A stretch of DNA of 64,000 nt. Source: Candidatus Omnitrophota bacterium (GTDB taxonomy: Bacteria > Omnitrophota > Gorgyraeia > Pluralincolimonadales > Pluralincolimonadaceae). This document shows, piece by piece, positions 140 through 29,141 of the stretch. The stretch lies in the NCBI GenBank assembly GCA_003141835.1, contig PLNR01000005.1, forward strand, positions 53,108 through 117,107. Reading direction: 5' to 3'. The position numbers were made by a program, and so were the translations under genes. The notes under the pieces were generated by a model that saw only the letters and a list, made by a program, of their open reading frames with translations, was not told the origin of the DNA and did no database searches. Each line of letters starts with the position of its first letter. Positions within the stretch are counted from its first letter, which is position 1.

Positions 140-1420
140 TTGGGCGAATTCCTTATTCCGGTCATAACGCTGACTTGCCTGTTAGTCGGTATGCTTGTCC
201 TGGTAAATACCGATGCCGCGGTAATATTGCTTATCTTCTCCATGCTCCTTTCGCCGGAACTGGAGCTGGCGCAGGTTCCAAGCCATGCTGTAGTCCTCAG
301 GTTCGACGATATATTACTTTGCGTGGTTTTCCTGACCTGGCTGGCAAAGATGGCCATGAATAAGCAATTAGGCCTGCTAAGAAATACCCCCCTGAACCTG
401 CCGATCGCGGTTTATGTGATAATTTCCATCCTTTCGACGGCGTGGGGTATCGCCGGCGGCTGGATCGTACCGATCAAGAGCCTCTTTTATTTATTAAAAT
501 ATTTTGAGTATTTTTTATTGTTTTACATGATCTCCAATATCGTAAAAAGCAAAGAACAGTTAAAGGCGTTTATCTTTGTATTTTTATTGACCGCGTTCAT
601 AATCTGTATCTATGCCTGGACCCAGTTCGGGACGGAAGCGAGGGTCACGGCCCCGTTTGAAGGGGAGTCCGAGCCGAATACCCTTTCCGGGTACCTGTTG
701 ATAGTAATGGCCTTATGCTGGGGGCTGATCTTATGCCTGAAACGGTTTAGCGCGCGCTTCTTGATTTTCGGCCTGTTCCTTTTTACCCTGCTGCCTTTTT
801 TCCGCACGCTTTCAAGAGGCGCCTGGATAGGGGTGCCGCCGATGGCGATCACGCTTACCATGCTGCACAAGCAGAAGAGCCCTATCCTTGTAGTTATTTT
901 GACCGCCGTTATTTTATCGCTGCCGGTAGTTTTGCCCAGTTTCGTAAAGCACAGGATAGAAGAGACCTTTGTGCCGGATTCGATAACCAAGGAATATGAG
1001 GTGGCCGGGAAAAAATTACCGGTGTCTTTGGAGGGTTCGGCCATGTTGAGGCTGGTAAGCTGGGAATGGATCATCACCAAGGAGTTCCCCAAGAAACCTT
1101 TCTTTGGCTGGGGGGTGACAGGCGTGGGGTTTATCGACAGCAACTATTTCCTTATGCTGGGCGAGGTCGGTTTCTTCGGCATAGCGGTATTCTTCTGGAT
1201 GTTGTCTACGATCTTCCGGCAGGCATACTGGAATTTTCAAAATATAGATGATGATTTTTACAAGGGCTTAAGTCTGGGACTGCTCGTTTGCCTGGTGGGG
1301 CTTATGGTCCAGGCGTTGACGGCAAATAGCTTTATCATCGTTCGCATAATGGAACCCTTCTGGTTTTTGACGGCTATGGTCATGGTGTTGCCCCGGCTGG
1401 CCGAGGAAAAAGCAAGATAA
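140..1420 (+). CDS. O-antigen ligase/polymerase-like polytopic membrane protein (Wzy_C-like)
   Basis: 426 aa with at least 10 predicted TM helices, the RGAWIG motif typical of the O-antigen ligase/Wzy_C family, and a large periplasmic loop. Sits directly upstream of the Wzx-like flippase. Confidence 0.55.
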   Translation: MGEFLIPVITLTCLLVGMLVLVNTDAAVILLIFSMLLSPELELAQVPSHAVVLRFDDILLCVVFLTWLAKMAMNKQLGLLRNTPLNLPIAVYVIISILSTAWGIAGGWIVPIKSLFYLLKYFEYFLLFYMISNIVKSKEQLKAFIFVFLLTAFIICIYAWTQFGTEARVTAPFEGESEPNTLSGYLLIVMALCWGLILCLKRFSARFLIFGLFLFTLLPFFRTLSRGAWIGVPPMAITLTMLHKQKSPILVVILTAVILSLPVVLPSFVKHRIEETFVPDSITKEYEVAGKKLPVSLEGSAMLRLVSWEWIITKEFPKKPFFGWGVTGVGFIDSNYFLMLGEVGFFGIAVFFWMLSTIFRQAYWNFQNIDDDFYKGLSLGLLVCLVGLMVQALTANSFIIVRIMEPFWFLTAMVMVLPRLAEEKAR

Positions 1421-1426
1421 AAATAA

Positions 1427-3043
1427 ATGGCTGCTAAAACAGAACAAAGCCTATCGCAAAAGATAGTCAGGAATACCATTTTTAATGCCGCTGGTCGTTT
1501 TTTGGGGATCTTAGTTGCTCTATTTTTGACTCCCTACGTTATCCATCATATCGGCATCGAAAGATTTGGAATTTGGGCAATCGTAGGGGCGGTAACCGGC
1601 TATTTTGGTTTGTTTGATTTTGGGATAGGGACCTCGTTTGTAAAATACATCGCTGAATTTTATGCAAATAAAGAATTTAAAAAAATAAACGAGGTCGTTA
1701 ACACAGGTTTTGTTTTTTATTCCATGTTTGCAATAATTATTATTGCCCTGGCATTTATTTTCATTAAGCCGCTACTCTCGTTTTTTAAAATCCCCCCCTA
1801 TCTATATAGCGAAACGGTGTTTGTCTTTTTAGCCGGGGTTATTCTCTTTGGTATTTCCAATGTCTTAAGTGCCTTTGTGGTAATTCAACCTGGTTTACAA
1901 CGGATGGATATTACCAATAAGGTGGCAATAGTCCTTTCAATACCAACTATTGCCGGAACATTTTTTTTCTTAGAAAAAGGGTATGGTCTACCGGGTCTTA
2001 TGATCAACAATATTATTATGTTTGTTATAAGTGGCGTAATCAATATCGTTATTTCTTTCAAGATATTACCCGAGTTAAGGTTTAATCCTTTCCTGCAGAA
2101 CAAGAAAATGTTTAAGAAGCTATTCACCTTTGGTTATAAATTGCAAATAGTCAAAATGAGCAGTTTTGCCGGGTCACAAACCGACAAGTTGCTGATCACC
2201 TATTTCTTAAGCCTGGGATCGGTAACTTTTTATTATCTGGGTAATACAATTGTTGAGAAAGCAAAAGACGTGTCCCTTCTTATCACTTCGGCTCTTCTGC
2301 CGGCAATATCAGAACTTGATGCCGGGAGGAAAATGGACAAAATTGCTCTGCTGTATTTTAGGAGCATAAAATATGTTACATTAATTGCCCTGCCCTTGAT
2401 TTTTTTTCTTTTTACAGATGCTCGCCTAATTATTTTAACCTGGATGAACCAAGATTTTGAAAAAGCGGTTCTCGCTTTACAGATTTTATCCGTCGGGATT
2501 TTCACAAATATCCTAACCGGGCCGGCGGCAGTTACTGTACAAGGCATAGGAAAACCAGAATACAATATGAGAGTTAGCCTGTTGCATTTATTCTTGAACT
2601 TATTCTTGAGTATAACCCTAATCATCAAATTTGGTTTTGTGGGTGTTTTAATTGGCACATCCCTGTCTTGTTTTCTCACGGGCGGTTATTTCATTTTCTT
2701 AGTAAATAGATTGCTAAAAATTTCTTCCGTTGAATTTTGCAAGATTATTCTTCAACCTTTACTCGCCTGCTTACTGGCAGCTTTTTTTATTCATCTTTTA
2801 AATATTCCGTTTGCTCCGTCAGGTCTTGCGGTAGACCGCCTTGCCAATCTTGGCATTTTAGTTCGTAACGGTCTCGCTTTCGGGGTGATAATTATAGCAA
2901 TTCTTTGGGTCACCAGGTACTTTAACGAGGAAGATGTGTCCTTAGCAAAAAGCCTATTTACGCAAGTTTCTTATGGCATAAAAGGTTTGAAGGGCGGTAA
3001 TTCCCGGAGAGACGATAAGATCAATGGGAAAGACTTGCAATGA
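1427..3043 (+). CDS. Wzx-like polysaccharide flippase (MOP/PST family)
   Basis: 538 aa, about 14 TM helices, N-terminal pattern typical of polysaccharide biosynthesis/flippase proteins. Low-GC coding region. Confidence 0.65.
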   Translation: MAAKTEQSLSQKIVRNTIFNAAGRFLGILVALFLTPYVIHHIGIERFGIWAIVGAVTGYFGLFDFGIGTSFVKYIAEFYANKEFKKINEVVNTGFVFYSMFAIIIIALAFIFIKPLLSFFKIPPYLYSETVFVFLAGVILFGISNVLSAFVVIQPGLQRMDITNKVAIVLSIPTIAGTFFFLEKGYGLPGLMINNIIMFVISGVINIVISFKILPELRFNPFLQNKKMFKKLFTFGYKLQIVKMSSFAGSQTDKLLITYFLSLGSVTFYYLGNTIVEKAKDVSLLITSALLPAISELDAGRKMDKIALLYFRSIKYVTLIALPLIFFLFTDARLIILTWMNQDFEKAVLALQILSVGIFTNILTGPAAVTVQGIGKPEYNMRVSLLHLFLNLFLSITLIIKFGFVGVLIGTSLSCFLTGGYFIFLVNRLLKISSVEFCKIILQPLLACLLAAFFIHLLNIPFAPSGLAVDRLANLGILVRNGLAFGVIIIAILWVTRYFNEEDVSLAKSLFTQVSYGIKGLKGGNSRRDDKINGKDLQ

Positions 3044-4128
3044 CTGCTTTAGAAGCACTCAATAAAATATTAAGAACCCTGTATTATACCTTTCATCCAA
3101 AGCACCTCTTTTTGTCAGTAAGACGTAGGGTTTTAAGAAAGACAAAGACCTTATTTCACGGCGAACTCCCTAGTTCTCTTTTTATCGAGGTTACCGGAGT
3201 ATGTAATCTACGCTGTGTCATATGTCACCGTAGTCACATAAGGGAAGAATTAGGTGAAATGGATTTAGGCACTTTTGCCCGAGTTGCAAGGATTTTTCCG
3301 TATGTTGAATCGGTATGCCTCATGGGTATCGGCGAACCTTTAGCAAGCAAGAACATTCTCGAAATGATCGCTGTATGCAAATCATATGGGCTTTCAGTTG
3401 GTTTTAATTCTAACGGCGTTTTATTAACGCCTAGTTTAACTAAAGATCTAATCTTATCCGGGCTGGATACTTTTGTTTTTTCTATTGACGGCGCTACTAA
3501 AGAAGTATATGAAAAAATTCGTATCGGTTCAAACTTCGATAAAGTCATCGAAAATATCAAGACCTTTACTGAAATGAAAAAAGAACTTAATAGGAATAAT
3601 CCAATTTTAGGATTGGAATTTGTTGCCATAACCAAAAATATTCACGAGCTTTTACCATATATTGACTTAGCTAAAAAAATTGGCATTAATAAAATTGTCG
3701 TAAGCCATGTTATTACGTTTTCAGAAGACCAGGAAAAGGAGGCATTGTATAATCATAGTGATCCAAGACATCAACAAATATGGAATGAGGCAATATCAAA
3801 AGCGAGGGACTTAGGAATTCGTTTAATACTACCTCCGTCGCAGGCAGTAGAAAACTCAAATTGCAGGTTTAGACCCTGGAAATGTTTATTTGTATCTTGG
3901 AAAGGAGACGTAAAACCTTGTTGTACCTACCTCCATTCTTTACCACTTTTATATAAGGGTAAAAAAATAATAGTTCCTACAATGAATTTTGGGAATGTCC
4001 ATAAAGAAGATATATTAAATTTATGGTATTCTCCCGAATACATCAAATTTAGAGAGCAAATTTTGAATAAGAAATATACAGAGATATGTGATTGTTGCCT
4101 TTACTCAAAGGAACTAATACCCGCTTAA
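3040..4128 (+). CDS. radical SAM protein with Cys-rich SPASM/twitch-like C-terminal domain
   Basis: CNLRCVIC = CX3CX2C radical-SAM motif near the N-terminus. C-terminal 80 aa contain 7 Cys (CC..C..CDCC), suggesting auxiliary Fe-S cluster(s). Start overlaps the stop of the upstream gene. Confidence 0.7.
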   Translation: MTALEALNKILRTLYYTFHPKHLFLSVRRRVLRKTKTLFHGELPSSLFIEVTGVCNLRCVICHRSHIREELGEMDLGTFARVARIFPYVESVCLMGIGEPLASKNILEMIAVCKSYGLSVGFNSNGVLLTPSLTKDLILSGLDTFVFSIDGATKEVYEKIRIGSNFDKVIENIKTFTEMKKELNRNNPILGLEFVAITKNIHELLPYIDLAKKIGINKIVVSHVITFSEDQEKEALYNHSDPRHQQIWNEAISKARDLGIRLILPPSQAVENSNCRFRPWKCLFVSWKGDVKPCCTYLHSLPLLYKGKKIIVPTMNFGNVHKEDILNLWYSPEYIKFREQILNKKYTEICDCCLYSKELIPA

Positions 4129-5492
4129 TGAAAAAAGTTTTATTTATCAACCCAGCAGTTAATAAATGTGGCGTCCCCCATACAGGACTGGCGATGTTAG
4201 GTGCTGTATTGAAAGAACAAGGACACGCGGTAAAGATTGCGGACTACCATTTTTTTTCTAAAACACCAAAGATTGAAAAAATTCTTGACGATTTTAGACC
4301 CGATGTAGTGGGAATTTCACTGTTTTCTTGTGCGGTATCCGTTGCCGATAAGATGATCACGGTCATAAAGGGCAAGAATAAAAATATCCCATTGCTATGC
4401 GGCGGTCCACATACCTCTTCATATTATAAGGAATTATCTACTGACTCTCGATTCGATTATATTATTATTGGAGAAGCAGAAAGCATTATTGTTGACCTGG
4501 TGGAAAAGGCTACGAGTAATAAACTACCCCAGGTAATTTATGCCCCCTTACCTGATATTAACAAATTGCCTTTTCCAGATTACACTTCCTTTTATAATCA
4601 CGAGAGTATCGACTTATATCCAATTATCACCAGCCGCGGCTGTCCATTTAACTGTTCTTTTTGTTCTGTACGACTCTCAAATTCAAAAAACTGGAGACCG
4701 AGATCTCTAGGGAACTGTATTGAAGAATTAAAAAGAATTAAGTCGGAACTTATTTTTGTTAAAAGTGTAATGATTTGGGACGACAATTTTTCATTAGATA
4801 TAGATCGAGCAAAGCTTTTTTTGCAATTGTGGCTCAAAGAGAAATTTCAATATAAATTAAGCTTAGCTAATGTCCGGGCAGATAAGATCGATAAAGAATT
4901 CCTGTCGCTTCTTAAGAGGGCCGGATGCGAAGAAGTCCAATTTGGCGTTGAACATGGGAATCCAGAAGTTTTCAGGCACGTTGAAAAGGGAGAAACGCTG
5001 GAAGATATCAGGCGAGCGGCAAAATTGGTAAACCAATGCGGAATGAAATTGGGTTGTTCGTTTATCATAGGGTTACCTCACGATACTTTAAAAAGAACCC
5101 TCGACTCTATTAAGTTTGCGAAAGAGTTAAAACCAGATCATATTCATTGGAACATACTTGTTCCCTACAAAGGGACAAGAGTTTATGAATATTTTAAAAA
5201 GAACGGACAAGCAAATAATGCTTCTATACCCTTTACGATCCCGCAAGACGGGCTATCTTTTGAACCAAATGCCGACACTCCTTATTTTACTCGAGAGGAA
5301 CGAAAAAAAGCTTATTTAATGGCATTACTTTTGTCAAAGGACGATTTATTATTACAGGATATAAGAAAAACTTTTTATAGAGCTCTGGAATATAATCTAA
5401 TAAAAGAATTTTTGCAGTGGCTTATTAGTGCAAAAATAATAAAAAACTTGATTTGGACAGCAAGGAAGCGCATGTCAAGGTATAAAAGGTGA
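4128..5492 (+). CDS. B12-binding domain radical SAM enzyme (class B-like)
   Basis: N-terminal B12-binding-like Rossmann segment (MKKVLFINP...GISLFS) followed by SRGCPFNCSFC = CX3CX2C. ATG 4128 overlaps the upstream TAA (TAATG). Paralog of 6472..7845 and 16945..18231. Confidence 0.75.
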   Translation: MKKVLFINPAVNKCGVPHTGLAMLGAVLKEQGHAVKIADYHFFSKTPKIEKILDDFRPDVVGISLFSCAVSVADKMITVIKGKNKNIPLLCGGPHTSSYYKELSTDSRFDYIIIGEAESIIVDLVEKATSNKLPQVIYAPLPDINKLPFPDYTSFYNHESIDLYPIITSRGCPFNCSFCSVRLSNSKNWRPRSLGNCIEELKRIKSELIFVKSVMIWDDNFSLDIDRAKLFLQLWLKEKFQYKLSLANVRADKIDKEFLSLLKRAGCEEVQFGVEHGNPEVFRHVEKGETLEDIRRAAKLVNQCGMKLGCSFIIGLPHDTLKRTLDSIKFAKELKPDHIHWNILVPYKGTRVYEYFKKNGQANNASIPFTIPQDGLSFEPNADTPYFTREERKKAYLMALLLSKDDLLLQDIRKTFYRALEYNLIKEFLQWLISAKIIKNLIWTARKRMSRYKR

Positions 5493-6475
5493 ACGTATTA
5501 GTCACGGGCGGAACGGGATTTATTGGAAGTGCGCTGGTCAAACGATTACTCAGAGAGGGTAATAGAGTAGGAGTTTTGAGTAGAGGTGAAAAAATTTTAG
5601 ACATTTCTCCTGAAGAAGAAGTAAAAATATATAGGGCCGATATATCTGATTTGGCATCGCTTGAACGTTCATTTCCTCTAGCTGGGAATATGAATATAAT
5701 ATTTCACTTAGCCGCCTGCACAGATTACAATGCAAGTAAAGAGAAACTATTTCGGACAAATGTAAAAGGAACCTTAAACCTTCTTAATCTTGCTGTAAAG
5801 CGCGGAATTAAGAAGTTTGTGTATATCAGTAGCATTGAAGCAATGGGCCCTATAACGAAAGAGCAAATTCCAGCCGAGGAATCTTACGTTTGTCAGCCTG
5901 TAAATGCTTATGGAGAATCAAAATTAGAGGCAGAAAAACAAGTAACAAGAGTTGGAAGCGAGGGGAAAGTAGAAACAGTTATTTTGCGCCTAGGTAATGT
6001 ATACGGCCCTAAAAGCTTATCTTTTATTTCACCTATTTCCAGCGCTATTTTAAGTAAAAATAAAAGATGGCTATATTTTAATCGCGATAGGTATTTATGG
6101 CATCCTGTATATATTGAAGATGTTATTGATGGAATTATGAAAGCTGCAGAAATAAAAGGGATAAATAATACTTATATTCTAACAGATGCAGAATATATTA
6201 CAGTTGAAGGTTTATCTCAGTTAATAGCCCGAGCGTTAGACATAGATGCAAGAACGTTAAGGTTAAATAAAATTGAGAAATTATGTTTAAGTTTACGAAG
6301 GCAAGCAGATAATTTTTACCATTGCCGGGGAGACAGCGTCAAAGAGAGGCCCCATTGGATATTTTCAATAGAAAAAGCAATAAGGGAATTCGGGTATTCT
6401 CCTAAGGTGAATTTGCGAGAAGGGATAGCAAAAACTATAGAGTGGGCAAAAAAGGAAGGTCTTTTACCGAAATGA
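5489..6475 (+). CDS. NAD-dependent sugar epimerase/dehydratase (SDR family)
   Basis: GTG start. N-terminal VLVTGGTGFIGS Rossmann motif and YxxxK-containing core. Sits between two radical-SAM genes in the glycan locus. Confidence 0.8.
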   Translation: MNVLVTGGTGFIGSALVKRLLREGNRVGVLSRGEKILDISPEEEVKIYRADISDLASLERSFPLAGNMNIIFHLAACTDYNASKEKLFRTNVKGTLNLLNLAVKRGIKKFVYISSIEAMGPITKEQIPAEESYVCQPVNAYGESKLEAEKQVTRVGSEGKVETVILRLGNVYGPKSLSFISPISSAILSKNKRWLYFNRDRYLWHPVYIEDVIDGIMKAAEIKGINNTYILTDAEYITVEGLSQLIARALDIDARTLRLNKIEKLCLSLRRQADNFYHCRGDSVKERPHWIFSIEKAIREFGYSPKVNLREGIAKTIEWAKKEGLLPK

Positions 6476-7845
6476 GGATCTTATTTATAAATCCACCTGC
6501 AAGGGAACATCCGGTAGTCAGGGATATGGCGGGGGGGCTTGGGTTTGACGGCGGAAGCAGCATAGTTCTTCCGCCATTGGATTTGGCTTATATGGCTGCT
6601 ACTTTATTGAATAAAGGTCATAAAATAAAAATAATAGATGCTGATGTTGAAAGTTCTTCAAATGAAGATATTTACCGAATTACAGGAGAATATGGACCAG
6701 AGGTAGCAGTTGCCACAGTGTCCTTGCCCAGTATTTACTCGGATTGCTTATTCTTAAAAGGTATTCGAGAGCATACTTCAGCTAAAGTAATAGCCAAAAC
6801 AAACATTTCTTATCCCCCTATTCTAAAAGAGTTATTACAAAGAAGCTCTGCAGATTTATGTATTTATGGTGAGTGCGATCTCAATATCGAAGAGATAATT
6901 TCAGAAAAAGAAAGAAAAGGTACAGCTTATTTTAGAAATGATGAAATTATAATTGAAGAAAATAATTTTATACAGGATTTGGATAAATTGCCCCTGCCTG
7001 CAAGGCAACTCTTACCTAATGAAAAGTATAGATACGTCCTTTTAGGCGATGGAGTAACGACGATGCAGACAAGCCGGGGATGTTCGTTTCCCTGCTCATA
7101 TTATTGCCCCTATCCTTTGGCGCAGGGCCATAAATGGCGCTCAAGGAGCCCGGAACACGTCGTTCGGGAAATCGAAGATATCGTAAATAAATATCACATA
7201 CAAAAGATCTTATTTCGCGACGCCACTTTTACTTTTGACAAGGAAAGGGCAAGGCGGATATGCGAGTTAATTCTCGAAAAAGGATTAAAAGTCAACTGGT
7301 GGTGCGAAACGAGGGTAGACTGCCTGGATTTCGACCTTATGAAAAAGATGAAAACGGCCGGATGCCTTGGGATGAACATTGGCGTAGAAACCGGCGATCC
7401 GGAACTCATGAAGAGACAGGCAAAAATCGGAATGACCCTGGATAAGCTTAAGGAGATCAGGAAAGCGGCGCGGGAATTGGATATGCGGCTGCATTTTTTA
7501 CTGATGGTGGGCTTGCCTGATGAGACTAAAAAAACTCTCTACGCGACGTATAAATTGATCTGCGATCTAAGACCTGAAAGTATCGGTATCTGCATTATCA
7601 CCCCATACCCAGGAACGCTGTTATACAACGAAGCGAAACAAAAAGGCTGGATCGAGGCAGAGGAGTGGTCAAGGTTCGGGGGTCATTATCCCGTGATGCA
7701 TACCGGGAACCTTTCGGCCAAGGACTTAATAAAGGCGCAGCAAATGATGTTTAAGTACTTTTCGTTTTCGCGCGATGGTTCGCTAAAGGGCCGGTTAAGA
7801 TCAGCGCTGATGGACTGGCGTTTTAAAATGTGGGTTTTATGTTAG
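6472..7845 (+). CDS. B12-binding domain radical SAM enzyme with atypical CX3CX3C motif
   Basis: MRILFINPP B12-like N-terminal domain. Cys triad reads GCSFPCSYYC (tat tat tgc), one residue longer than the canonical CX3CX2C. DLDKLPLPAR motif shared with paralog 16945..18231. ATGA overlap with the epimerase stop. Confidence 0.7.
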   Translation: MRILFINPPAREHPVVRDMAGGLGFDGGSSIVLPPLDLAYMAATLLNKGHKIKIIDADVESSSNEDIYRITGEYGPEVAVATVSLPSIYSDCLFLKGIREHTSAKVIAKTNISYPPILKELLQRSSADLCIYGECDLNIEEIISEKERKGTAYFRNDEIIIEENNFIQDLDKLPLPARQLLPNEKYRYVLLGDGVTTMQTSRGCSFPCSYYCPYPLAQGHKWRSRSPEHVVREIEDIVNKYHIQKILFRDATFTFDKERARRICELILEKGLKVNWWCETRVDCLDFDLMKKMKTAGCLGMNIGVETGDPELMKRQAKIGMTLDKLKEIRKAARELDMRLHFLLMVGLPDETKKTLYATYKLICDLRPESIGICIITPYPGTLLYNEAKQKGWIEAEEWSRFGGHYPVMHTGNLSAKDLIKAQQMMFKYFSFSRDGSLKGRLRSALMDWRFKMWVLC

Positions 7846-7855
7846 GAAGGAAATC

Positions 7856-21086: not shown

Positions 21087-23215
21087 GAACCTTCAATGTG
21101 TTATATGTAGACATATTCGGCGACTGGATAGGCGGCGGGCAGAGAAGCCTGATGGACCTGGCGAAGTCGTTAGATCCCGGACATTTCAATCCGGTCATAA
21201 TTTGCCCGGAGGAAGGCAAGTTTGTCGACTTGATCCGGAGCCATTCGATCACCGTTGAAATTGTGCCGATGGGCACGTTCAAAACGATAGATCCCATATC
21301 CAGGTTATTAACTTTTAATAAATTGGCGGGGCTTGTCAAAAAGCACAAGATCGACCTGATCCACGTAAACGGCCTGAGAGCGGCGATCTATTGCGGGGCG
21401 ATAGCAAAGTATTTCAAGGTCCCTCTCGTCTGGCATGTAAGGGTGCCGGAATCAGGTGGTGTCGCCGAAAGGGCGGCGTATGCCTTCGCCGATAAGATAA
21501 TCGTCAATTCAAGGGCAGTCGGTAAAAAATTCGCGAATTGGCGGGGGAGCGCAGATAAGGTCGTGGTCATATATAACGGGATAAATTTGGAAGAATTTAA
21601 GCCCTGCGAAAGGAAAAACAAGTTAGCTCCCGGACTCGGATTCGGTGAAAATGAACCTTTAGTCGGTATGGTCGGGGAATTAAGTCCGAAAAAAGGCCAG
21701 AAATGCTTTTTAGAGGCGGCGTCTAAAGTGATCGGGGAATCGCCGCAGGTTAAATTCTTGATCGTAGGAGAAGAGCATGACAGCGGCGTATATAAAGGCG
21801 AATTGACCAGGTTGGCGGATAAACTAAAGATCTCACAGTCGGTTTGTTTCCTGGGATTCCGGGATGATATAGCCGAGATACTGGATTCCCTGGCATTGTT
21901 GGTCCATTGTCCGGAGAGGGAGGGGTTCGGGAGGGTAGTGGTGGAAGCGATGGCATTAAAAGTGCCGGTTGTCGCAACTGATGCCGGCGGGATACCGGAG
22001 ATAATCAAAGACGGGGTGAACGGGTTCCTGATCCCCGTCGGGGACACAGAGGCGCTGGCTAAGACGATATTAGGCCTATTAAGGGATAAAGCGAGATCCG
22101 GGATCCTGGGAGAGGCGGGCAGGAAGACGGTCGAGGGATCATTCGATCTGAAGAGGCAGATAAAAAAGATCGAAGGGATCTACCGGGAATTGCTCCAAGG
22201 ATATGGAACAGGCGCAATAAAACAATACGCGGACCTATTCCTGGATTCGATCTGGGGCGACCGGAACGTCTTTGCGATCCAGCCGGAGCATCGGAGGCAG
22301 TTGGATGAATTCGCGGATTATCTTGCGGGGGGAGGCATAAACTTCCGGTCAACCGGTGATTTCCTTAAGGATAGGAACAATTTCTTGATAGAGAATTTTT
22401 TGACTTTCCTGATATCTAAAAAGATATTAAAAGGGTCCCGCTTATACAGGGACCTCGAAATCATCAAAAGACAAATAAGGGAGAAAACGGTAAGCGATAA
22501 AGATTACGATGAACGCATATCAATACAGACGCCGGAGTCGTTGATCGACGAATATTACGATCCCGAGGATCCCGAAAGGAAGAAGAGGCTGGAGGTGATC
22601 TTACGAAATCTGGACGCCGCGGGCGGCGAAAAGATACTGGACCTGGGCTGCGGGGCCGGCGCCCTTGTTTACCATTCGGCGCTGGCGGGGGCCGCGGCTT
22701 GGGGGATCGACTATTCAAAAAAATCGATAGAGGCCGCCGTCCGGCTTTCCGAGCGTTATAACTTTAAAGATAAAGCGACGTTTTTGGTCCACGACGTCAC
22801 GAGAGGCGCCTTGCCTTTCAATGACGGATTTTTTGACAAAGTCGTGGCGGCCGATTTTATCGAACACATAACCCATTTCGATAAGGAAAAGCTGATCAAA
22901 GAAGTACGCCGGGTTTTAAGAACCGGCGGAACGCTGGTGATCTATACGCCCAACGGGATAAGGGAGTTTTTGGGACATTTAAAGCGGCGTCTATTGCGTG
23001 CGTTCAGGAAGGGAAATGATTGTAACGACAAAACAAGGCTCCATTTCGGCTTGATCGACAGGTTTAGGTTTGAAGGCCTGTTGAGGAGGAACAACCTTAT
23101 CTTTAAAAGGTATTATGTCGATATTACACGGCCATATTTGGCGGCTATACCCCTGCTAAAGGATCTTTTAAGCGCTAATTTATTGTGGGTAATTAGAAAG
23201 GACGGTAAATCTTAA
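21083..23215 (+). CDS. fusion protein: GT4 glycosyltransferase (N) plus class I SAM methyltransferase (C)
   Basis: N-terminal about 380 aa have a GT4 signature (EGFGRVVVEAMALKVPVVATDAGGIPE). C-terminal about 200 aa have ILDLGCGAGALV motif I and DFIEHI motif. ATGA overlap at the 21083 start. Confidence 0.75.
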   Translation: MRTFNVLYVDIFGDWIGGGQRSLMDLAKSLDPGHFNPVIICPEEGKFVDLIRSHSITVEIVPMGTFKTIDPISRLLTFNKLAGLVKKHKIDLIHVNGLRAAIYCGAIAKYFKVPLVWHVRVPESGGVAERAAYAFADKIIVNSRAVGKKFANWRGSADKVVVIYNGINLEEFKPCERKNKLAPGLGFGENEPLVGMVGELSPKKGQKCFLEAASKVIGESPQVKFLIVGEEHDSGVYKGELTRLADKLKISQSVCFLGFRDDIAEILDSLALLVHCPEREGFGRVVVEAMALKVPVVATDAGGIPEIIKDGVNGFLIPVGDTEALAKTILGLLRDKARSGILGEAGRKTVEGSFDLKRQIKKIEGIYRELLQGYGTGAIKQYADLFLDSIWGDRNVFAIQPEHRRQLDEFADYLAGGGINFRSTGDFLKDRNNFLIENFLTFLISKKILKGSRLYRDLEIIKRQIREKTVSDKDYDERISIQTPESLIDEYYDPEDPERKKRLEVILRNLDAAGGEKILDLGCGAGALVYHSALAGAAAWGIDYSKKSIEAAVRLSERYNFKDKATFLVHDVTRGALPFNDGFFDKVVAADFIEHITHFDKEKLIKEVRRVLRTGGTLVIYTPNGIREFLGHLKRRLLRAFRKGNDCNDKTRLHFGLIDRFRFEGLLRRNNLIFKRYYVDITRPYLAAIPLLKDLLSANLLWVIRKDGKS

Positions 23216-23218: not shown

Positions 23219-24061
23219 GTGATCATGGAAGAGGTCAGCTGCGATATATGCGGGATCGACAAGACGAAAAATATAGTGAGCTCGGATAAATTTAACATCG
23301 TCCAATGCCAGGGGTGTGGTTTGGTATATATGAACCCAAGGCCGGATAAGCGGTTGTTAGGCGAATACTATGCCAACTATTACTCGGACCTGAAAGGCCA
23401 TTACGAAGAAGAGAGGCTGTACAAGTGCCGCTTTAAAGAACGGCTAGATGCGATCAAAAAATATAAGAATGGAGGCAGGTTATTAGACATCGGATGCGGC
23501 GTCGGATTTTTTTTGCAATCGGCTAAGGAGAGGAAATGGCAGGTCTCCGGGATAGAACTTTCATCGTTGTCGGCCGATATAGCCCGGTCATCCGGCGTAG
23601 ACGTGTTTACGGGCTCGATCGAAGATGCGGACCTGGAGAGCGGCTCCTTCGACGTGATCACAATGTGGCACGTGATAGAACATTTACAGCGTCCTTCAGG
23701 GGCCCTGAAGAAAATTTATCGCGCGTTGAAAAAAGGGGGCGTATTGGCCCTTGAGACCCCGAATATGGATTATTATTTCAAATTTAAGGCCGATAAATTA
23801 AATGATGTTTTACGTCGCGAACACCTCTATAACTTTTCAAGCCGTACATTAACCCGCTTATTGGAAAATTCAGGATTTACCGTTTTAAATTTAGAACAAA
23901 AGCCGTCAGGGACGGATCTGGGAGGGATGCTGAAAAAATACGGGGTTAAAGGTTATCTGGTAAAGCACCTGCCTTTTTTGTCCGTGATCAGGGAGCCTTT
24001 GATGCGATTCAGGGGTTTATTGGGCCAAAACGAGGTTATCGTTGCTTACGCAAAAAAATAG
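23219..24061 (+). CDS. class I SAM-dependent methyltransferase with N-terminal zinc ribbon
   Basis: CDICG...CQGCG ribbon then LLDIGCGVGFF. Same architecture as 12758..13702. Confidence 0.75.
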   Translation: MIMEEVSCDICGIDKTKNIVSSDKFNIVQCQGCGLVYMNPRPDKRLLGEYYANYYSDLKGHYEEERLYKCRFKERLDAIKKYKNGGRLLDIGCGVGFFLQSAKERKWQVSGIELSSLSADIARSSGVDVFTGSIEDADLESGSFDVITMWHVIEHLQRPSGALKKIYRALKKGGVLALETPNMDYYFKFKADKLNDVLRREHLYNFSSRTLTRLLENSGFTVLNLEQKPSGTDLGGMLKKYGVKGYLVKHLPFLSVIREPLMRFRGLLGQNEVIVAYAKK

Positions 24062-25088
24062 GATTAAGAAGATCCTGATCCTCCGGTTAGACCGCATAGG
24101 GGATATAGTGCTTTCTACGCCGGCAATTAAAGCGGTGAGGGAATATTTTCCGGAAACGCACATCGCGGTAATGGTCAGGGGGGAATATAAGGGCTTACTC
24201 ATAAACGATCCCGCCATAAATGAGGTCATCGGATGCAAGCCCCTTTGGGATTTTAAGTTCATCGGGGAACTGCGGGACAGGAAGTTCGATCTAGCCGTCG
24301 ACCTGGTCATGGACCGGGATTATAAAAGCGCTTTTTTGGCTTATTTAAGCGGGGCCCCTTATCGGGCAGGGTACGATATTGCAGGCAGGGGCATATTTTT
24401 CAATATAAGGGCCGGATATGGCAAAGAGAAGAAACATCTCGTTGAAAATAATTTAGATGTCATAAGAAAGCTGGGGATAGTCCCCGGCGGGGGGAGGCCT
24501 CAACTTCATGTTGCCCCGCAGGATTCGGGATTTATCAGGGATTTTTTATCATCACAGGGCATTGATCAGGGTGAAATTTTAGTCGGCATCCATCCCGGAG
24601 GATATTATCCATCGCAGCGCTGGCCGGCGGAGAGAGTCGCCGCGCTGTCCGATGAAATAATAAAAAGATACACTGCTAAGGTGGTCCTTATCGGAGGGCC
24701 GGAAGAAAGGGATTTTATGGAAAGGGCTGCGGGATCGATGAAGGTAAAAGCTATTGTCGTAAAAGACATCTCTTTGGCGCATTTAACGGCGCTGATCCGG
24801 CGGTGCCAGCTTTTGGTCTGTAATAATTCCGGGCCCTTGCATATCGCCTGCGCATTAGGGGTGCCTACGGTATCGACTATGGGGCCGACTTTACCCTGGC
24901 GGTGGTGGCCTGTCGGGGAGGGCCACATTGTCCTGCGGAAGGACCTGCCTTGCAGCCCTTGCGGGAAAGGTTCTTGCGGGACGCACGAGTGCATGGAATT
25001 GATCACTGTGGATGAAATGCTGGAGGCGGTTGACAAGCAGATGAAACTTTTGGTGAAGAATAAATGTGCGGAATCTACGGCGCGGTAG
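24042..25088 (+). CDS. family 9 glycosyltransferase (heptosyltransferase-like)
   Basis: ILILRLDRIGDIVLSTPAIKAVREYFP N-terminal signature of GT9 (RfaF/RfaC-like) and C-terminal CxxC Cys cluster. Overlaps the upstream gene by 20 nt. Confidence 0.75.
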   Translation: MLTQKNRIKKILILRLDRIGDIVLSTPAIKAVREYFPETHIAVMVRGEYKGLLINDPAINEVIGCKPLWDFKFIGELRDRKFDLAVDLVMDRDYKSAFLAYLSGAPYRAGYDIAGRGIFFNIRAGYGKEKKHLVENNLDVIRKLGIVPGGGRPQLHVAPQDSGFIRDFLSSQGIDQGEILVGIHPGGYYPSQRWPAERVAALSDEIIKRYTAKVVLIGGPEERDFMERAAGSMKVKAIVVKDISLAHLTALIRRCQLLVCNNSGPLHIACALGVPTVSTMGPTLPWRWWPVGEGHIVLRKDLPCSPCGKGSCGTHECMELITVDEMLEAVDKQMKLLVKNKCAESTAR

Positions 25089-28033
25089 GGATCCGGGACC
25101 CTTCGCTTTTGGAGCGCATGGGCGCGGTCACGATCCATCGCGGCCCTGATGAAAGCGGCGCCTATCTGGATGATGATGCCTCATTGGGCGTGCGGAGGTT
25201 AAAGATAATCGGGTTAGAATCCGGGCATCAGCCGATACACAATGAGGATCAGGCGCTTTGGCTCGTTTATAACGGCGAGATATATAACTTTAAGGAATTA
25301 CGATATTCCCTTGAGGCGAAGGGGCATAAATTCTATACGAAGACAGACGGCGAGGTGATCGTGCACCTCTACGAGGAATACGGCGAGGATTGCGTCAAAC
25401 ATTTAAGAGGGATGTTCGCCTTCGCTGTCTGGGATAAAAAAAACCGGAACTTATTTCTGGCGCGGGACAGGATCGGGATAAAACCGCTTTATTACACATC
25501 TGTTGACGGAGTTTTGTATTTTGCCTCAGAACTTAAGGCCTTATTGGAGGCGGATGTGATCAAAAAAGAGATAAACCCTGAGGCGATACATGATTTCCTG
25601 ACGTTCCTATATATCCCCGCCCCCTCGACGATCTTTAAATCCGTCTTTAAATTACCGCCGGGGTATACCTTGAGATTCCAGGACGGGAGTTATTCGGTAC
25701 AGGAATACTGGGACCTGGAATTGGATATAAGCAAGGAAAAGGATGAAATTTTTTACCTCGATAAGATATACGATCTATTGCAAGAGGCGGTAAAGTTACA
25801 TTTAATAAGCGATGTGCCTTTAGGGGTTTTTTTGAGCGGAGGAGTGGATTCGAGCGTCCTGGTAAGCATTATGGCGGGTTTGACAAATCGACCGATAAAG
25901 ACTTTTAGCATCGGATACGGCAGGAAAGACGAAGATTATAATGAGCTGAAATACGCCCGCCTGGTCAGTGAATGCTTTGGCACGGAGCACAGGGAGTTTA
26001 TCGTCAAACCGGACGCGATCGGACTCTTACCGGAACTCGCCTGGCATTTCGATGAGCCATTCGCGGATTCATCCGCGATCCCCACTTTCTTAATTTCAAA
26101 ATTAGCGAAAAAAGATATAACGGTCGCCTTAAGCGGCATCGGCGGAGATGAGGCCTTTGGGGGATATCCCAGGTATTTAGGCGCTTATATTTCCGGATAT
26201 TACCAGCGGCTGCCGGAAATCATGAGAAAGGCGGCGTATAAAGCGGCATCTTTATTTCCCGAGAGCACGCAGAACAGGGACCTCTTTAGTTGGGCGCGGA
26301 GGTTTGCCAGGGGCGGGCTCCTTCCTTTTGGAATGAGGTATTTCGATTGGGTGACTTTCCTGCGACCGGACGAGATAAATAAACTCTACACGGCAAGTTT
26401 TATCGGAAATTTAAAAGATGCCGGTCCGGTCAAGGATAAGCAGGCTTATTTCGGCGGGGACAGATCGCTGGAGGGGATTTTTCGTTTCGATATAAAAACC
26501 TATCTCCCCGATGACCTGCTCTTTATGGCGGATAAGATGAGCATGGCGAATTCGCTGGAATTGCGGGTGCCGTATTGCGACCACAAGGTGATGGAGTTTG
26601 CCGCCTCGATCCCCTACGGATTAAAGCTCAAAGGGCTTAAATTAAAATACCTGTTAAAAAAATCCTTCAAGGGCCTGCTGCCCCGGGAGGTCTTAACCCG
26701 GCGAAAACAAGGTTTTATGATCCCCATAGGCAGATGGATAAAACAGGACCTGAAGGGCGTCGCGGAAGAGCTCTTGTCCAGGCGGCAAATTGAAAAGCGC
26801 GGCTATTTCAATTACGAATATGTCCGCTGGATCCTGGACCAGCATTACTCCGGAAAACGGGATTTCACCGACAGGATCTGGGCGCTTATGAACCTGGAGA
26901 TGTGGCACAGGATATATATAGACAAAGATCACCCGGTAAATAAGGATATGGATATAGCGGTAGAAGATGTCCCCTCAGCTACGGGCAGGCATTGCCCCCG
27001 GATCGCCGGGGACGATTTTAAGGACGCCAAAAAGATCCTTATCGTAAACCTGGCGGGCATAGGAGACGTTGTGATGTCCACCCCTGCCTTGAGGGCGGTG
27101 AGAAAGAGATTTCCGTCGGCCTTTATCTCGTTCCTTACGGTCCCCGGTTCCGCCGGCATCCTCAGGGGCAGCTCAGATGTAAACGAGATATTGGCTTTAG
27201 ACGCGGGGAGACCGGGTATAAGAGATGTTTTAAGGCTGTTGACGGATCTAAGGAAAGCCAAATATGACATGCTGATCAACCTTTACGAGATAGGTTCGCT
27301 TTCCGGCGCTATTAAGATGGCATCTCTTTTCTGGTTCGTGGGTGGAAAATATAAAGTCGGACGGAATACCGGCGGATTAGGCTTCTTCTTAAATCGTAAA
27401 ATTTTTGAAAGCGCCCGGCTGAAAAGGCATACGGTCGAGTCAATGCTGGACATAGCGAGATTTTTGGGCGGCAACTCGGACGGGAAAGGCATGGAGATAC
27501 CGCTTGAAAAAAATGAGATGGATTTCGCCAGTGATTATCTTAAGTCGCATAATATTTCCGGCGAGGACCTGTTGTTCGGGCTTCATAAAGACGCTAAAAG
27601 GCCGAGCAGGCGCTGGCCGGATGAAAGTTGGGATATTCTGGAAAAAGAATTAAGAATAAGATACGGGGCAAAAATAATCTTGACGCCGGGCGCCGGCGAA
27701 TTTAATTTAAAACAATTTGCCGCCATCCTTAAAAGGTTCGACCTTTTCATTACTAATGATACCGGAGCCATGCATATCGCCGCGGCCGTGGGTACGCCCA
27801 CGGTGGCTTTATTCGGACCGTCGGACATCCATAAGTTCCGGCCTTATGCCGAGAGTGATAAATTTGCGATCGTAAGGAAACACGTCGGTTGTAACCGGCC
27901 TTGCTATAAGCATGATTGCGCAGATAAAGGCTGTATGGAGCGTATTGCGCCTGAAGATGTACTGATAGCGGCGGAGAAAATATTAAATGAAAAAAAGATT
28001 AAAAGTCCTTCATATAATCACGCGCTTAGATAA
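25064..28033 (+). CDS. fusion protein: asparagine-synthase-like amidotransferase (about 620 aa) plus GT9 heptosyltransferase-like domain (about 350 aa)
   Basis: MCGIYGA Ntn-Cys start and SGGVDSS PP-loop, then a continuous frame into ILIVNLAGIGDVVMSTPALRAVRKRFP (GT9 signature). 989 aa with no internal stop. Confidence 0.8.
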   Translation: MCGIYGAVGIRDPSLLERMGAVTIHRGPDESGAYLDDDASLGVRRLKIIGLESGHQPIHNEDQALWLVYNGEIYNFKELRYSLEAKGHKFYTKTDGEVIVHLYEEYGEDCVKHLRGMFAFAVWDKKNRNLFLARDRIGIKPLYYTSVDGVLYFASELKALLEADVIKKEINPEAIHDFLTFLYIPAPSTIFKSVFKLPPGYTLRFQDGSYSVQEYWDLELDISKEKDEIFYLDKIYDLLQEAVKLHLISDVPLGVFLSGGVDSSVLVSIMAGLTNRPIKTFSIGYGRKDEDYNELKYARLVSECFGTEHREFIVKPDAIGLLPELAWHFDEPFADSSAIPTFLISKLAKKDITVALSGIGGDEAFGGYPRYLGAYISGYYQRLPEIMRKAAYKAASLFPESTQNRDLFSWARRFARGGLLPFGMRYFDWVTFLRPDEINKLYTASFIGNLKDAGPVKDKQAYFGGDRSLEGIFRFDIKTYLPDDLLFMADKMSMANSLELRVPYCDHKVMEFAASIPYGLKLKGLKLKYLLKKSFKGLLPREVLTRRKQGFMIPIGRWIKQDLKGVAEELLSRRQIEKRGYFNYEYVRWILDQHYSGKRDFTDRIWALMNLEMWHRIYIDKDHPVNKDMDIAVEDVPSATGRHCPRIAGDDFKDAKKILIVNLAGIGDVVMSTPALRAVRKRFPSAFISFLTVPGSAGILRGSSDVNEILALDAGRPGIRDVLRLLTDLRKAKYDMLINLYEIGSLSGAIKMASLFWFVGGKYKVGRNTGGLGFFLNRKIFESARLKRHTVESMLDIARFLGGNSDGKGMEIPLEKNEMDFASDYLKSHNISGEDLLFGLHKDAKRPSRRWPDESWDILEKELRIRYGAKIILTPGAGEFNLKQFAAILKRFDLFITNDTGAMHIAAAVGTPTVALFGPSDIHKFRPYAESDKFAIVRKHVGCNRPCYKHDCADKGCMERIAPEDVLIAAEKILNEKKIKSPSYNHALR

Positions 28034-29141
28034 AGGCGGCTCTTCGGAGAATACCTTGTTGACCGCCTCCGGCCTGGATAAGGGAAGGTTTGATGTAACC
28101 TTAGTCTTCGGGAAAACCAAGGACCCCGACGGCCGGGTAAGAAGGGCTTTGTCCGATAACGGGATAAATTATCGGGTAGTCCCCCGGCTCGTAAGACAAC
28201 TGGATCCCTGGAGCGACCTGACCGCCTTTTTGAGGTTATACGCTATAATAAAGCGGGGGGATTTCGACATCGTCCACACCCATACGTCAAAAGCAGGCAT
28301 CCTGGGCAGGTGGGCGGCGAAATTAGCCGGCGTCAAGGTCATAATCCACACCCCGCACGGCCATATCTTTTACGGTTATTTTGGCCCGGTAAGGAACAGG
28401 TTGTTCATTATGCTGGAACGGTTCACTGCGCATATTACCGACAGGATAATCACATTAACCCAAAGAGGGAAAGATGAGCACGTTAAATTCGGGATATCCA
28501 AGGCCGATAAATTCGTGTCTATTTATAGCGGAGTAGAGTTAGAAAAGTTCATAAATTCAAACTATGACCCGGCGCAGGCGAGGGAATCGCTTGGCATCCC
28601 GCCAAACGGGCCGGTGATAGGGACCATAACGAGGCTCGAGCCGGTAAAAGGGAACATGTATTTCATCGAAGCGATACCGCAGGTTATCAAGATCTTTCCT
28701 GACCTAAAAGTTATAATAACGGGCGACGGAGCGCAAAAACGCGCTATGGAAAATAAGATCAAGGAACTTTCTTTATCACGGAATGTCATTCTCCGGGGCG
28801 CCACAAATGACGCCCCCGGGGCATTGTCCGCGTTAGACATATTTGTCCTGCCTTCTTTAAATGAAGGGATGGGAAGATGCCTGCTTGAGGCGATGGCCCT
28901 GTCCAAACCGATAATCGCGACAGATGTCGGCGGGGTATCTGAAATTGTCGAGAATGGGGTGAACGGGATATTGGTCCCTCCGAAAGATCCGGACGCGCTG
29001 GCGCAAGCTATAATATCTTTACTGGGAAATAAGGCCCGCGCCGACGGGATGGGCAAGTCGGGCAAGGGTAAGCTCAACCGTTTTTTTAGCGCTCAAGCTA
29101 TGGTAGAAAAGATAGAGGCGTTATACGAAGAACTCACATAA
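27987..29141 (+). CDS. family 4 glycosyltransferase (GT4)
   Basis: EGMGRCLLEAMALSKPIIATDVGGVSEIVENG signature. Confidence 0.8.
   Translation: MKKRLKVLHIITRLDKGGSSENTLLTASGLDKGRFDVTLVFGKTKDPDGRVRRALSDNGINYRVVPRLVRQLDPWSDLTAFLRLYAIIKRGDFDIVHTHTSKAGILGRWAAKLAGVKVIIHTPHGHIFYGYFGPVRNRLFIMLERFTAHITDRIITLTQRGKDEHVKFGISKADKFVSIYSGVELEKFINSNYDPAQARESLGIPPNGPVIGTITRLEPVKGNMYFIEAIPQVIKIFPDLKVIITGDGAQKRAMENKIKELSLSRNVILRGATNDAPGALSALDIFVLPSLNEGMGRCLLEAMALSKPIIATDVGGVSEIVENGVNGILVPPKDPDALAQAIISLLGNKARADGMGKSGKGKLNRFFSAQAMVEKIEALYEELT

Follow-up and report, generated by a model that had tools for sequence, protein, structure and literature searches.

A probable surface-polysaccharide locus of a Candidatus Omnitrophota bacterium with an exchangeable cassette of radical enzymes

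We analyzed a stretch of 64,000 nucleotides (the window) from contig PLNR01000005.1 of the Candidatus Omnitrophota assembly GCA_003141835.1, which at positions 140-29141 carries 21 open reading frames (ORFs), packed tightly or overlapping, with 20 on the plus strand and one (16945-18261) on the minus strand. ORFs were listed mechanically, domains were called with Pfam, curated families were those of NCBIfam with their cut-offs, and structural comparisons were made by sequence search of the PDB and by Foldseek searches with AlphaFold (AF2) models. An initial annotation, made from the letters alone, had described 21 consecutive genes of a Wzx/Wzy-type glycan locus with an unusually dense set of tailoring enzymes. 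All 21 ORFs lie where it placed them, Pfam backs nearly all of the assignments (E 1e-14 to 1e-106), and the type of locus is supported by these domains and by wza and wzc genes found upstream. A probable origin in Omnitrophota also follows from the first AsnB protein, whose cluster at 90% identity includes proteins to which NCBI gives the name Candidatus Omnitrophota. Our results indicate that the region is very probably a surface-polysaccharide locus with a swappable cassette of radical S-adenosylmethionine (radical-SAM) enzymes, one of which is a relative of the antibiotic-pathway enzyme AprD4.

Gene content and export machinery

Directly upstream of the window, the source contig (locus L002) encodes Wza (Poly_export), an NTP_transf_5 protein and Wzc (Wzz+GNVR+AAA_31), followed by the first gene of the window. 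The outer-membrane polysaccharide export (OPX) protein and the polysaccharide co-polymerase with its tyrosine-kinase domain (PCP/BY-kinase) are thus encoded just outside the window, and with these upstream genes the whole locus comes to about 33 kb and is of the Wza/Wzc/Wzy/Wzx type, the window holding its larger part. Of the limits given by the initial annotation, the end at 29141 stood, with unrelated housekeeping genes beyond it, whereas the start at 140 is where the window edge cuts the locus. Genes for Wza and Wzc are also kept in four other loci of our set (L005, L014, L088, L091). The NTP_transf_5 gene, for an uncharacterized nucleotidyltransferase (L002, 6932-7981), lies between wza and wzc in sister genomes as well, and in L005 it adjoins wza.

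Only two proteins of the locus are polytopic, and the tailoring enzymes all appear soluble in hydrophobicity windows. One is the Wzy_C-family protein encoded at 140-1420 on the plus strand, directly after wzc (Wzy_C E 3.5e-6; 11 hydrophobic windows). The other is the Wzx-type flippase at 1427-3043, also on the plus strand (Polysacc_synt E 4e-17; 10 hydrophobic windows).

Three observations weigh against the Wza/Wzc/Wzy/Wzx reading of the locus. The Wzy_C match of 27.3 bits misses the cut-off of 31.7; the protein is polytopic and suitably placed, but the family also spans WaaL ligases and PglL-type O-oligosaccharyltransferases, and the roles of polymerase, ligase and O-oligosaccharyltransferase are all compatible with the data for the product of 140-1420. 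No initiating phosphoglycosyl transferase (Bac_transf or MraY-like Glycos_transf_4) was found among the window genes tested or in the 10 kb upstream, and one may be encoded elsewhere on the 443-kb source contig. Genes for nucleotide-sugar synthesis were likewise missing from the window and the 10 kb upstream.

The sub-threshold Wzy_C match is one reason to consider, in place of a capsule or exopolysaccharide, the O-antigen or an outer-core glycan of lipopolysaccharide (LPS), or else a glycan that the Wzy_C protein hands over en bloc to a protein such as an S-layer protein, a pilin or a giant adhesin. Two GT9 (heptosyltransferase-family) domains in the locus point the same way, as do PMT_2/ArnT-like GT-C enzymes in related loci and a 2554-aa C25-peptidase-like protein encoded about 8.3 kb upstream of the Wzy_C gene (L002, ...1676). 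We nevertheless regard this alternative as improbable. Wza together with Wzc is the hallmark of capsule or exopolysaccharide export; here Wza and a kinase-domain Wzc are encoded directly upstream, and in other phyla they are kept with the cassette described below, while for the GT9 proteins all curated heptosyltransferase models remain under their cut-offs.

Twelve glycosyltransferase (GT) domains are encoded in the locus: two fused GT2, four GT4, one GT2_5, two CgeB-like, one GT1-like and two GT9. The first two form the double GT2 protein at 7856-9733, which is followed, again on the plus strand and with Pfam support throughout, by a GT4 (9702-10913), a GT2_5 (10901-11728), a CgeB-like protein (11736-12755), a methyltransferase (12740-13702), a second CgeB-like protein (13706-14737) and a GT4 joined to a GT1-like domain (14734-16920). 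This block (9702-16920) is kept at 89% nucleotide identity in sister genomes. Beyond the minus-strand gene at 16945-18261, the plus strand resumes with an asparagine-synthase (AsnB)-type glutamine amidotransferase (18422-20320; Asn_synthase E 7e-103, with GATase domains), a methyltransferase (20241-21086; motif I at residue 73), a GT4-methyltransferase fusion (21047-23215; motif I at residue 530) and a further methyltransferase (23219-24061; motif I at residue 88). A GT9 (24042-25088; Glyco_transf_9 E 6e-31), an in-frame AsnB-GT9 fusion (25064-28033; Asn_synthase E 6e-106 at residues 235-616, Glyco_transf_9 at about 657-943) and a terminal GT4 (27987-29141), the last gene of the locus, complete the series. 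Where five class-I methyltransferase domains had been counted before, Pfam and the motif-I sites yield four.

The two Ntn-Cys asparagine-synthase homologs of the initial annotation are confirmed. Both begin with MCGI, the Cys2 signature of N-terminal nucleophile (Ntn) hydrolases, and both exceed the TIGR01536 cut-off of 267 bits (519 and 516 bits). Their best curated match is TIGR03108, an XrtA/PEP-CTERM-associated family, yet at 648 and 608 bits they stay below its cut-off of 817, and no exosortase is encoded in the window or the 10 kb upstream. The AsnB-GT9 fusion recurs in three related genomes (979-989 aa), and this in-frame joining strengthens the proposed link between the amidotransferases and the glycan.

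An exchangeable cassette and a conserved four-part unit

Four sister loci (L089-L092), one of them from the metagenome-assembled genome (MAG) GCA_028716565.1, share the flanks of the window and most of the locus. The bounds of the cassette were set by blastn of L089, L090 and L091 against the window. The sisters are collinear with it at 83-87% nucleotide identity from upstream of wza to position 2145, and again at 89% from 8780 to beyond 30239; for 2146-8779 the sister loci gave no alignable sequence in blastn. This 6.6-kb segment has a GC content of 38.8%, compared with 44-49% for the remaining locus and 52.9% for the remaining window. It contains the part of wzx for residues 241-538, followed on the plus strand by a radical-SAM gene whose product has a truncated-SPASM (twitch-like) C-terminal domain (3040-4128), a B12-binding radical-SAM gene of class-B type, here called B12a (4092-5492), an extended short-chain dehydrogenase/reductase (SDR; 5489-6475; Epimerase E 1e-40), the AprD4-like radical-SAM gene (6472-7845) and the first domain of the double GT2 (7856-8779). 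In the sister genomes its place is taken by 2.5 kb that encode another Wzx C-terminal half, a single B12 radical-SAM protein on the minus strand (478 aa, 28% identical to B12a) and the beginning of a GT2 with one domain.

Both breakpoints lie inside genes. The right one (nucleotide 8780, at about residue 309) falls exactly between the two Glycos_transf_2 stretches of the double GT2, whose second domain (8780-9733) belongs to the shared backbone; the 625-aa protein of the window is accordingly a junction product. A similar double fusion exists elsewhere (P0235), and the best PDB match of the window protein is a bifunctional chondroitin polymerase. The left breakpoint lies within wzx: residues 1-240 belong to the backbone and are 70-85% identical to the sister Wzx, a value that drops to 17-47% beyond them. 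The C-terminal half of the window Wzx instead shares 67-73% identity with Wzx from L087, a carrier of the same cassette type. This half of the flippase co-varies with the cassette, an argument for passage of the cassette's product through this Wzx.

A third relative (ENA ERZ1426844) has kept the 3' block of AsnB, methyltransferase, GT4-methyltransferase, methyltransferase, GT9, AsnB-GT9 and GT4. Its 5' block contains an AMP-ligase, a carrier protein and an MBOAT protein (a DltA/DltC/MBOAT/AlgX-like set), without radical-SAM genes, a gene set that points to acylation as another way of decorating the same backbone glycan. Three of the four radical enzymes are thus a discrete, horizontally exchanged cassette and not part of one tailoring pool; the fourth, B12b, is the product of the sole minus-strand gene and is present in the sister genomes. 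Hypervariable polysaccharide cassettes have been reported for Omnitrophota (bioRxiv 10.64898/2026.06.07.730766), and the cassette of the window fits that description.

Relatives of the AprD4-like protein are numerous. Of 8000 candidates scored, 862 proteins matched at E <= 1e-3, and identity to the query does not fall below 48% in any of the 120 best listed; the sources given by name comprise Omnitrophota, Elusimicrobiota, Nitrospiraceae, Geobacteraceae, Pseudomonadota and Gottesmanbacteria. An exhaustive search found more than 150 clusters (at 50% identity) scoring at least 206 bits, which is about AprD4's own similarity to the query. A single-protein scan of genome contigs returned only one distant archaeal relative, at 29% identity.

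To describe gene neighborhoods, we collected 80 metagenomic loci around such relatives and assigned their ORFs to the window proteins by blastp; counts refer to orthologs of at least 45% identity with enough flanking sequence. An SDR ortholog is adjacent to the AprD4-like gene in 16 of 18 loci, and in 17 of 18 the distance to a GT2 is no more than 2.5 kb. A further B12-type radical-SAM gene is found within 4 kb in nearly all cases (10 of 11), and wzx within 6 kb in 6 of 11. The downstream GT2 matches the N-terminal domain (residues 1-300) of the double GT2 in 26 of 28 loci. Orthologs of B12a, 65-67% identical, adjoin the SDR and AprD4-like genes in L012, L014 and L016, and views of whole loci from other samples again show Wza-Wzc-Wzy-Wzx followed by the same block.

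Domain fusions lend independent support to a functional unit of B12 radical-SAM enzyme, SDR, AprD4-like enzyme and GT2. The AprD4-like domain is fused to GT2 in six large proteins, to an SDR in one (P0376) and to a B12-binding radical-SAM domain in one. It stands at the N-terminus of very large proteins, namely P0354 (2494 aa), P0358 (1990 aa), P0359 (1402 aa) and P0363 (1846 aa). In P0358 and P0359, Pfam finds the AprD4-like part together with GT2 domains and tetratricopeptide (TPR) repeats, and in P0358 also GT4/GT1. These large proteins may be related to the giant proteins reported for Omnitrophota.

A minimal version of the locus, L006 from a Nitrospiraceae MAG, has the order PMT_2, UbiA, B12 radical-SAM, Wzx, SDR, AprD4-like, GT2, GT2, GT9 and contains no Wza, Wzc or Wzy. 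A UbiA prenyltransferase and PMT_2 adjoining the module in such a setting would suit a cassette that acts on a lipid, be it the polyprenyl carrier, a hopanoid-like or ether lipid, or a phosphoglycolipid resembling moenomycin, and the radical enzymes do show generic matches (about 95-195 bits) to the lipid-modifying families TIGR04072 (ladderane-type), HpnR and HpnJ. A lipid target is still very improbable in our view, given the tight linkage to GT2, which extends to fusions, the co-variation of the cassette with the C-terminal half of Wzx, its location between wzx and the glycosyltransferase genes, and the solubility of all its enzymes.

The radical enzymes and their predicted chemistry

To our knowledge, AprD4 is the only known radical enzyme that dehydrates a sugar, and such chemistry is known only from an antibiotic pathway. 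AprD4, a 1,2-diol dehydratase, joins the NADPH reductase AprD3 in the C3' deoxygenation of paromamine (PMC5461906, PMC7941887), and it binds no cobalamin despite a Rossmann-like domain (PMC12931638).

The protein encoded at 6472-7845 (the start in the database gene call; 6442 in the mechanical ORF list) matches AprD4 (6FD2) in the PDB with E 2.4e-63 over residues 14-445, and the next structure follows at 1e-7. In the alignment of the cluster motifs, GCPYPCRFYCPYPL of AprD4 stands opposite GCSFPCSYYCPYPL of the window protein; both are of the non-canonical form CX3CX3C, with C214, C218 and C222 aligned to the AprD4 motif GCPYPCRFYCPYPL. The motif is invariant across 26 homologs, down to 48% identity. 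The AF2 model (predicted local distance difference test, pLDDT, 89) has the Rossmann-like N-terminal domain and radical-SAM barrel of AprD4, and its top Foldseek match is 6fd2 (TM 0.86-0.89, rmsd 3.0, E 9e-40), ahead of TsrM, the next fold, at TM 0.67. The initial annotation had counted three B12-binding radical-SAM proteins with this one among them; two exceed the Pfam threshold, and the third is the AprD4-like enzyme, in which the B12-binding domain scores an insignificant 17 bits against a cut-off of 32.

The SDR gene ends in an ATGA overlap with the start of the AprD4-like gene. Its product contains GGTGFIG at residues 7-13 and YGESK at 141-145 (YxxxK), and has Arg rather than Asp after beta2, which suggests a preference for NADP(H). 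A reductase partner like that of AprD4 is indicated by this overlap, by the adjacency of the two genes in the related loci and by the SDR fusion in P0376; AprD3 presumably belongs to the same SDR class. Together, homology to a cobalamin-independent dehydratase and the pairing with a reductase-like SDR predict deoxygenation rather than the C-methylation that had been proposed for all three supposed B12 enzymes. We therefore describe the product of 6472-7845 as a predicted 1,2-diol dehydratase acting on a sugar and the product of 5489-6475 as its predicted NADPH ketoreductase partner, and we give deoxygenation by this pair close to an even chance.

The curated families temper this prediction. 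NF033070 (AprD4) is the best NCBIfam model for the protein, aligned over positions 21-431 of 456, but it scores 264.1 bits against a cut-off of 500, and the second-best model is the ring-contraction enzyme HpnJ at 195 bits (cut-off 578). Because the curated threshold for AprD4 was failed, we class the protein as a homolog that would work like AprD4 and not as a member of that family; these scores make it a relative rather than an equivalog, one that may perform some other radical rearrangement. It is unlikely, though it deserves some weight, that the locus and cassette are as described and the AprD4-like enzyme performs other chemistry: a ring contraction of HpnJ type that gives a carbocycle or cyclitol, an epimerization or the formation of a C-C bond, in which case the SDR would be an epimerase or oxidase and not a ketoreductase. 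The structure-based identity to AprD4 of only about 29% would be in keeping with this, as would the best curated match of the SDR, which is the hopanoid-associated sugar epimerase HpnA (119 bits, cut-off 368). Yet AprD4 is clearly the best match in both sequence and fold and shares the rare CX3CX3C spacing, the beta2 region of the SDR is of the NADP type, and the window contains neither a deacetylase nor hopanoid genes.

The two enzymes with a recognizable B12-binding domain are B12a (4092-5492; B12-binding 66.6 bits against a cut-off of 32.1, Radical_SAM 79.5 bits) and B12b (16945-18261, the minus-strand backbone gene; 59.2 and 103 bits). Unlike the AprD4-like enzyme, both combine this domain with a CX3CX2C core, at residue 184 in B12a and 191 in B12b. 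No radical-SAM protein of the locus reaches a curated NCBIfam cut-off, nor do the SDR, the GT9 proteins or Wzx, and for B12a and B12b the curated matches, at 95-143 bits, fall far short and are a mixture of BchE, PhpK, HpnJ, ladderane-type and RiPP (ribosomally made, post-translationally modified peptide) enzymes. PDB matches of the B12-domain enzymes to TokK and TsrM are weak. Neither protein reaches the cut-off of a characterized methylase family, and each is about equidistant from methylases and non-methylases, which weakens the case for C-methylation; for these two the earlier proposal is left with a prior at the level of the enzyme class and is not a homology call. C-methylation is the commonest activity of B12-binding radical-SAM enzymes. 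That B12a C-methylates is for us a doubtful but serious proposition.

The remaining radical enzyme (3040-4128; Radical_SAM E 3e-18) has its CX3CX2C core at residues 55-62 and seven more cysteines toward the C-terminus. The initial annotation had read these as a seven-cysteine SPASM/twitch-like tail; all seven are present, but four to five are conserved in the family. C275, G289, C294, C350 and C353 are invariant, C295 is mostly kept, and conservation is lacking for C282 and C352; past C353 the protein has 9 more residues. The family therefore has no conserved seven-cysteine SPASM motif, although the Pfam SPASM match is clear (E 3.6e-14). The pattern CX(n)GX4C...CX2C with four invariant cysteines marks the domain as twitch-like, that is, a truncated SPASM with one fully ligated auxiliary cluster. 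Enzymes with a single-cluster twitch domain are typically two-electron oxidants (PMC9012708).

The AF2 model of this protein (pLDDT 90) begins with two helices. Its Foldseek search found no specific neighbor, peptide maturases and sugar/nucleotide enzymes all lying at TM 0.55-0.63, and this too makes a specific role harder to argue. With BtrN of butirosin biosynthesis the protein shares the radical-SAM core and the four conserved C-terminal cysteines of the CX(n)GX4C...CX2C pattern; it differs in being about 100 residues longer, in a marginal 24-bit match and in the Foldseek rank of BtrN (36), behind peptide maturases and DesII/BlsE. The earlier comparison with BtrN thus holds for the architecture, with its predicted single auxiliary cluster, and not for any specific similarity of sequence or fold. 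As the fold search does not discriminate, we reject both "BtrN-like" and "RiPP maturase" as specific identities.

Could the SPASM-type and B12 radical-SAM enzymes be peptide or protein maturases that merely lie beside a glycan locus? The best curated matches of the protein at 3040-4128 are TIGR04317 and TIGR04311, both putative metalloenzyme maturases (228 and 221 bits), SuiB, CteB and SkfB are among its top Foldseek matches, and an SCM-like cassette is encoded about 6 kb upstream of the window start. We consider the idea hardly credible nonetheless. The scores are far under the cut-offs of 380 and 400, and neither Pfam nor the model shows a RiPP recognition element (RRE) or PqqD domain in the protein; its gene overlaps both neighbors, which leaves no room for a precursor gene. 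Its fold is matched as well by DesII and BlsE as by peptide enzymes. Close orthologs number eight, making it a rarer accessory than the other members of the unit; the two ortholog contexts viewed (L087, L088) both show the same block of Wzx, twitch enzyme, B12a, SDR, AprD4-like enzyme and GT2, and more distant relatives are fused to GT2 or SDR domains. Within the locus we see no peptide maturase with a precursor nearby, and none of the four radical-SAM proteins is HemN-like, an identity we rejected on weak and remote matches; the initial annotation had named either as grounds to doubt a glycan pathway. Its further ground, a match of the locus to a well-characterized LPS or capsule cluster, does not apply either.

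The SCM-like cassette itself lies on the source contig (L002, 1694-4016), about 6-8 kb upstream of window position 1. It does not belong to the glycan locus, but it is a neighbor of the kind the initial annotation had named as a possible refutation. It comprises a ScmC-like protein, PqqD, a radical-SAM/SPASM protein (350 aa) and a 52-aa ORF. The cassette adjoins the 2554-aa Peptidase_C25-like protein; next come genes for an S24 peptidase and a divergent ABC-2 transporter.

Known systems, a proposed pathway and its meaning

The closest characterized counterpart of the central enzyme pair is AprD4/AprD3 of apramycin biosynthesis, with which it has in common homology over the full length, the cluster motif, the two-domain fold and a partner gene of reductase type. 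Besides the low identity and sub-cut-off score, the differences are those of context: a Wzx/Wzy locus of an anaerobic, uncultured lineage as opposed to an actinomycete aminoglycoside cluster, and linkage, elsewhere fusion, to GT2 and B12 radical-SAM enzymes. A small-molecule cluster of the aminoglycoside type was considered on account of the co-occurrence of AprD4-, BtrN- and GenK-like classes; we ruled it out since 2-deoxy-scyllo-inosose synthase and aminotransferase genes are missing and the genes lie between wzx and the glycosyltransferase genes.

In its export genes the locus resembles group-1 capsule and colanic-acid pathways, with Wza (OPX), Wzc (PCP with kinase), Wzy_C, Wzx and a run of glycosyltransferases, and it shares their low GC content and mosaic, serotype-like structure. 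It departs from them in its four radical-SAM enzymes, in the NTP_transf_5 gene between wza and wzc, and in the absence of phosphoglycosyl transferase and nucleotide-sugar genes from the window and the 10 kb upstream. The amidotransferases recall WbpS-type and TIGR03108 enzymes in placing an Ntn-Cys glutaminase and Asn_synthase within a polysaccharide locus; unlike TIGR03108 members, they score below that cut-off, have no exosortase in view and in one copy are fused to GT9.

Moenomycin tailoring employs the same combination of enzyme classes (the B12 radical-SAM C-methylase MoeK5, MoeF5/MoeH5 and the SDR MoeE5) on a lipid-linked oligosaccharide. MoeF5 and MoeH5 are its AsnB-like amidotransferases, and MoeE5 is among the PDB matches of the window SDR (60 bits). 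MoeK5 is listed among the Csp3 methylases (PMC12931638). Moenomycin is a small phosphoglycolipid antibiotic made without Wzx, Wzy, Wza or Wzc, and the likeness is one of enzyme classes, not of specific orthology. The HpnI/HpnJ/HpnA system, which leads from hopanoid glucosamine to a cyclitol ether, parallels the unit described here in its logic: a lipid-linked acceptor receives a sugar from a GT2, this sugar is remodeled by a related radical-SAM enzyme, and an SDR accompanies the two. The bit scores of the window proteins against HpnJ and HpnA nevertheless stay far under those cut-offs, and the hopanoid pathway was rejected, as the window has no squalene-hopene cyclase (shc) or hpn genes.

Among the genes beyond 29141 are those for an amidohydrolase, a phosphate transporter, TerC and GalT, along with a JAB/ThiF pair and an efflux operon. 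In the JAB/ThiF pair (31259-32405), a gene for a JAB/MPN-family protease overlaps one for a ThiF/MoeB-type E1-like protein, and judged from these domains it looks like a sulfur-carrier or ubiquitin-like system. The operon at 35816-40832 encodes TetR, an HlyD-type adaptor, an ABC ATPase, an ABC-2 permease and a TolC-like outer-membrane factor; such a tripartite efflux system supports a diderm envelope for the organism. Further on, two proteins resembling GH2 TIM barrels (43929-45884 and 47863-49236) flank three consecutive ORFs of 194-217 aa (45903-47855) that have no Pfam match. A c-di-AMP riboswitch (57842-57999; Rfam RF00379, 79.8 bits) lies upstream of kdpA (58270-60018) and kdpB (60028-62106), which is an ordinary, known arrangement.

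The explanation we find best overall, at somewhat better than even odds (roughly 55%), is a Wza/Wzc/Wzy/Wzx polysaccharide locus in which the cassette radically tailors one sugar. From the gene content, the homologies, the four-part unit, the fusions and the cassette replacement observed here we infer all chemical steps, their order and the form of the substrate (a lipid-linked glycoside or a nucleotide sugar). In this pathway, a lipid carrier in the cytoplasm would be the site where the twelve glycosyltransferase domains assemble a large repeat unit, to which the four SAM methyltransferase domains would add O- or N-methyl groups and in which the two AsnB-type enzymes would amidate carboxylates. 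The GT2 domain of the cassette would handle the sugar to be tailored. From this sugar the AprD4-like enzyme would abstract a carbinol hydrogen and eliminate the neighboring hydroxyl, a 1,2-diol dehydration leading to a keto-deoxy sugar, and the translationally coupled NADPH-type SDR would reduce the ketone, for a net deoxygenation as in AprD4/AprD3. For B12a the most likely contribution would be the addition of a C-methyl group, and for the twitch enzyme a two-electron oxidation or an epimerization. The finished unit would then be flipped, polymerized and exported. Because AprD4 and HpnJ act on glycosides and not on nucleotide sugars, and because fusions to GT2 recur, we favor a lipid-linked intermediate made by the GT2 as the substrate, which would be the weakest step of the model.

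The export machinery of the locus is ordinary, and amidotransferases and methyltransferases are common in such loci. A literature search turned up no relevant radical-SAM enzymes in Wzx/Wzy, capsule or polysaccharide loci. The claim that the enzymology is uncharacterized holds, since none of the radical-SAM proteins reaches a curated cut-off and we found no characterized equivalent in the searchable literature. As far as these searches reach, an AprD4-type enzyme in a cell-surface glycan pathway, the four-part unit with its fusions and the exchangeable cassette are undescribed.

We tentatively propose, at appreciably less than even odds, that the unit of B12 radical-SAM enzyme, SDR, AprD4-like enzyme and GT2 is an oxygen-sensitive route, widespread among uncultured anaerobes, to deoxy and branched sugars that are made directly on surface glycans as these grow, that it represents the first role of an AprD4-type enzyme outside aminoglycosides, and that it takes part in serotype switching together with the matching half of Wzx. 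The lineages concerned would include Omnitrophota, Elusimicrobiota, Nitrospirota, Geobacteraceae and bacteria of the candidate phyla radiation. The unit is compact enough for heterologous anaerobic reconstitution. Should the predicted chemistry prove right, radical deoxygenation or branching would be a mainstream means of surface diversification in anaerobes, and the polysaccharides of these uncultured phyla would hold sugars that are not yet catalogued. The swap of the cassette between near-identical Omnitrophota genomes would then amount to a natural plus/minus comparison for assigning the chemistry, and would be equally useful for studying surface variation under pressure from phages or hosts.

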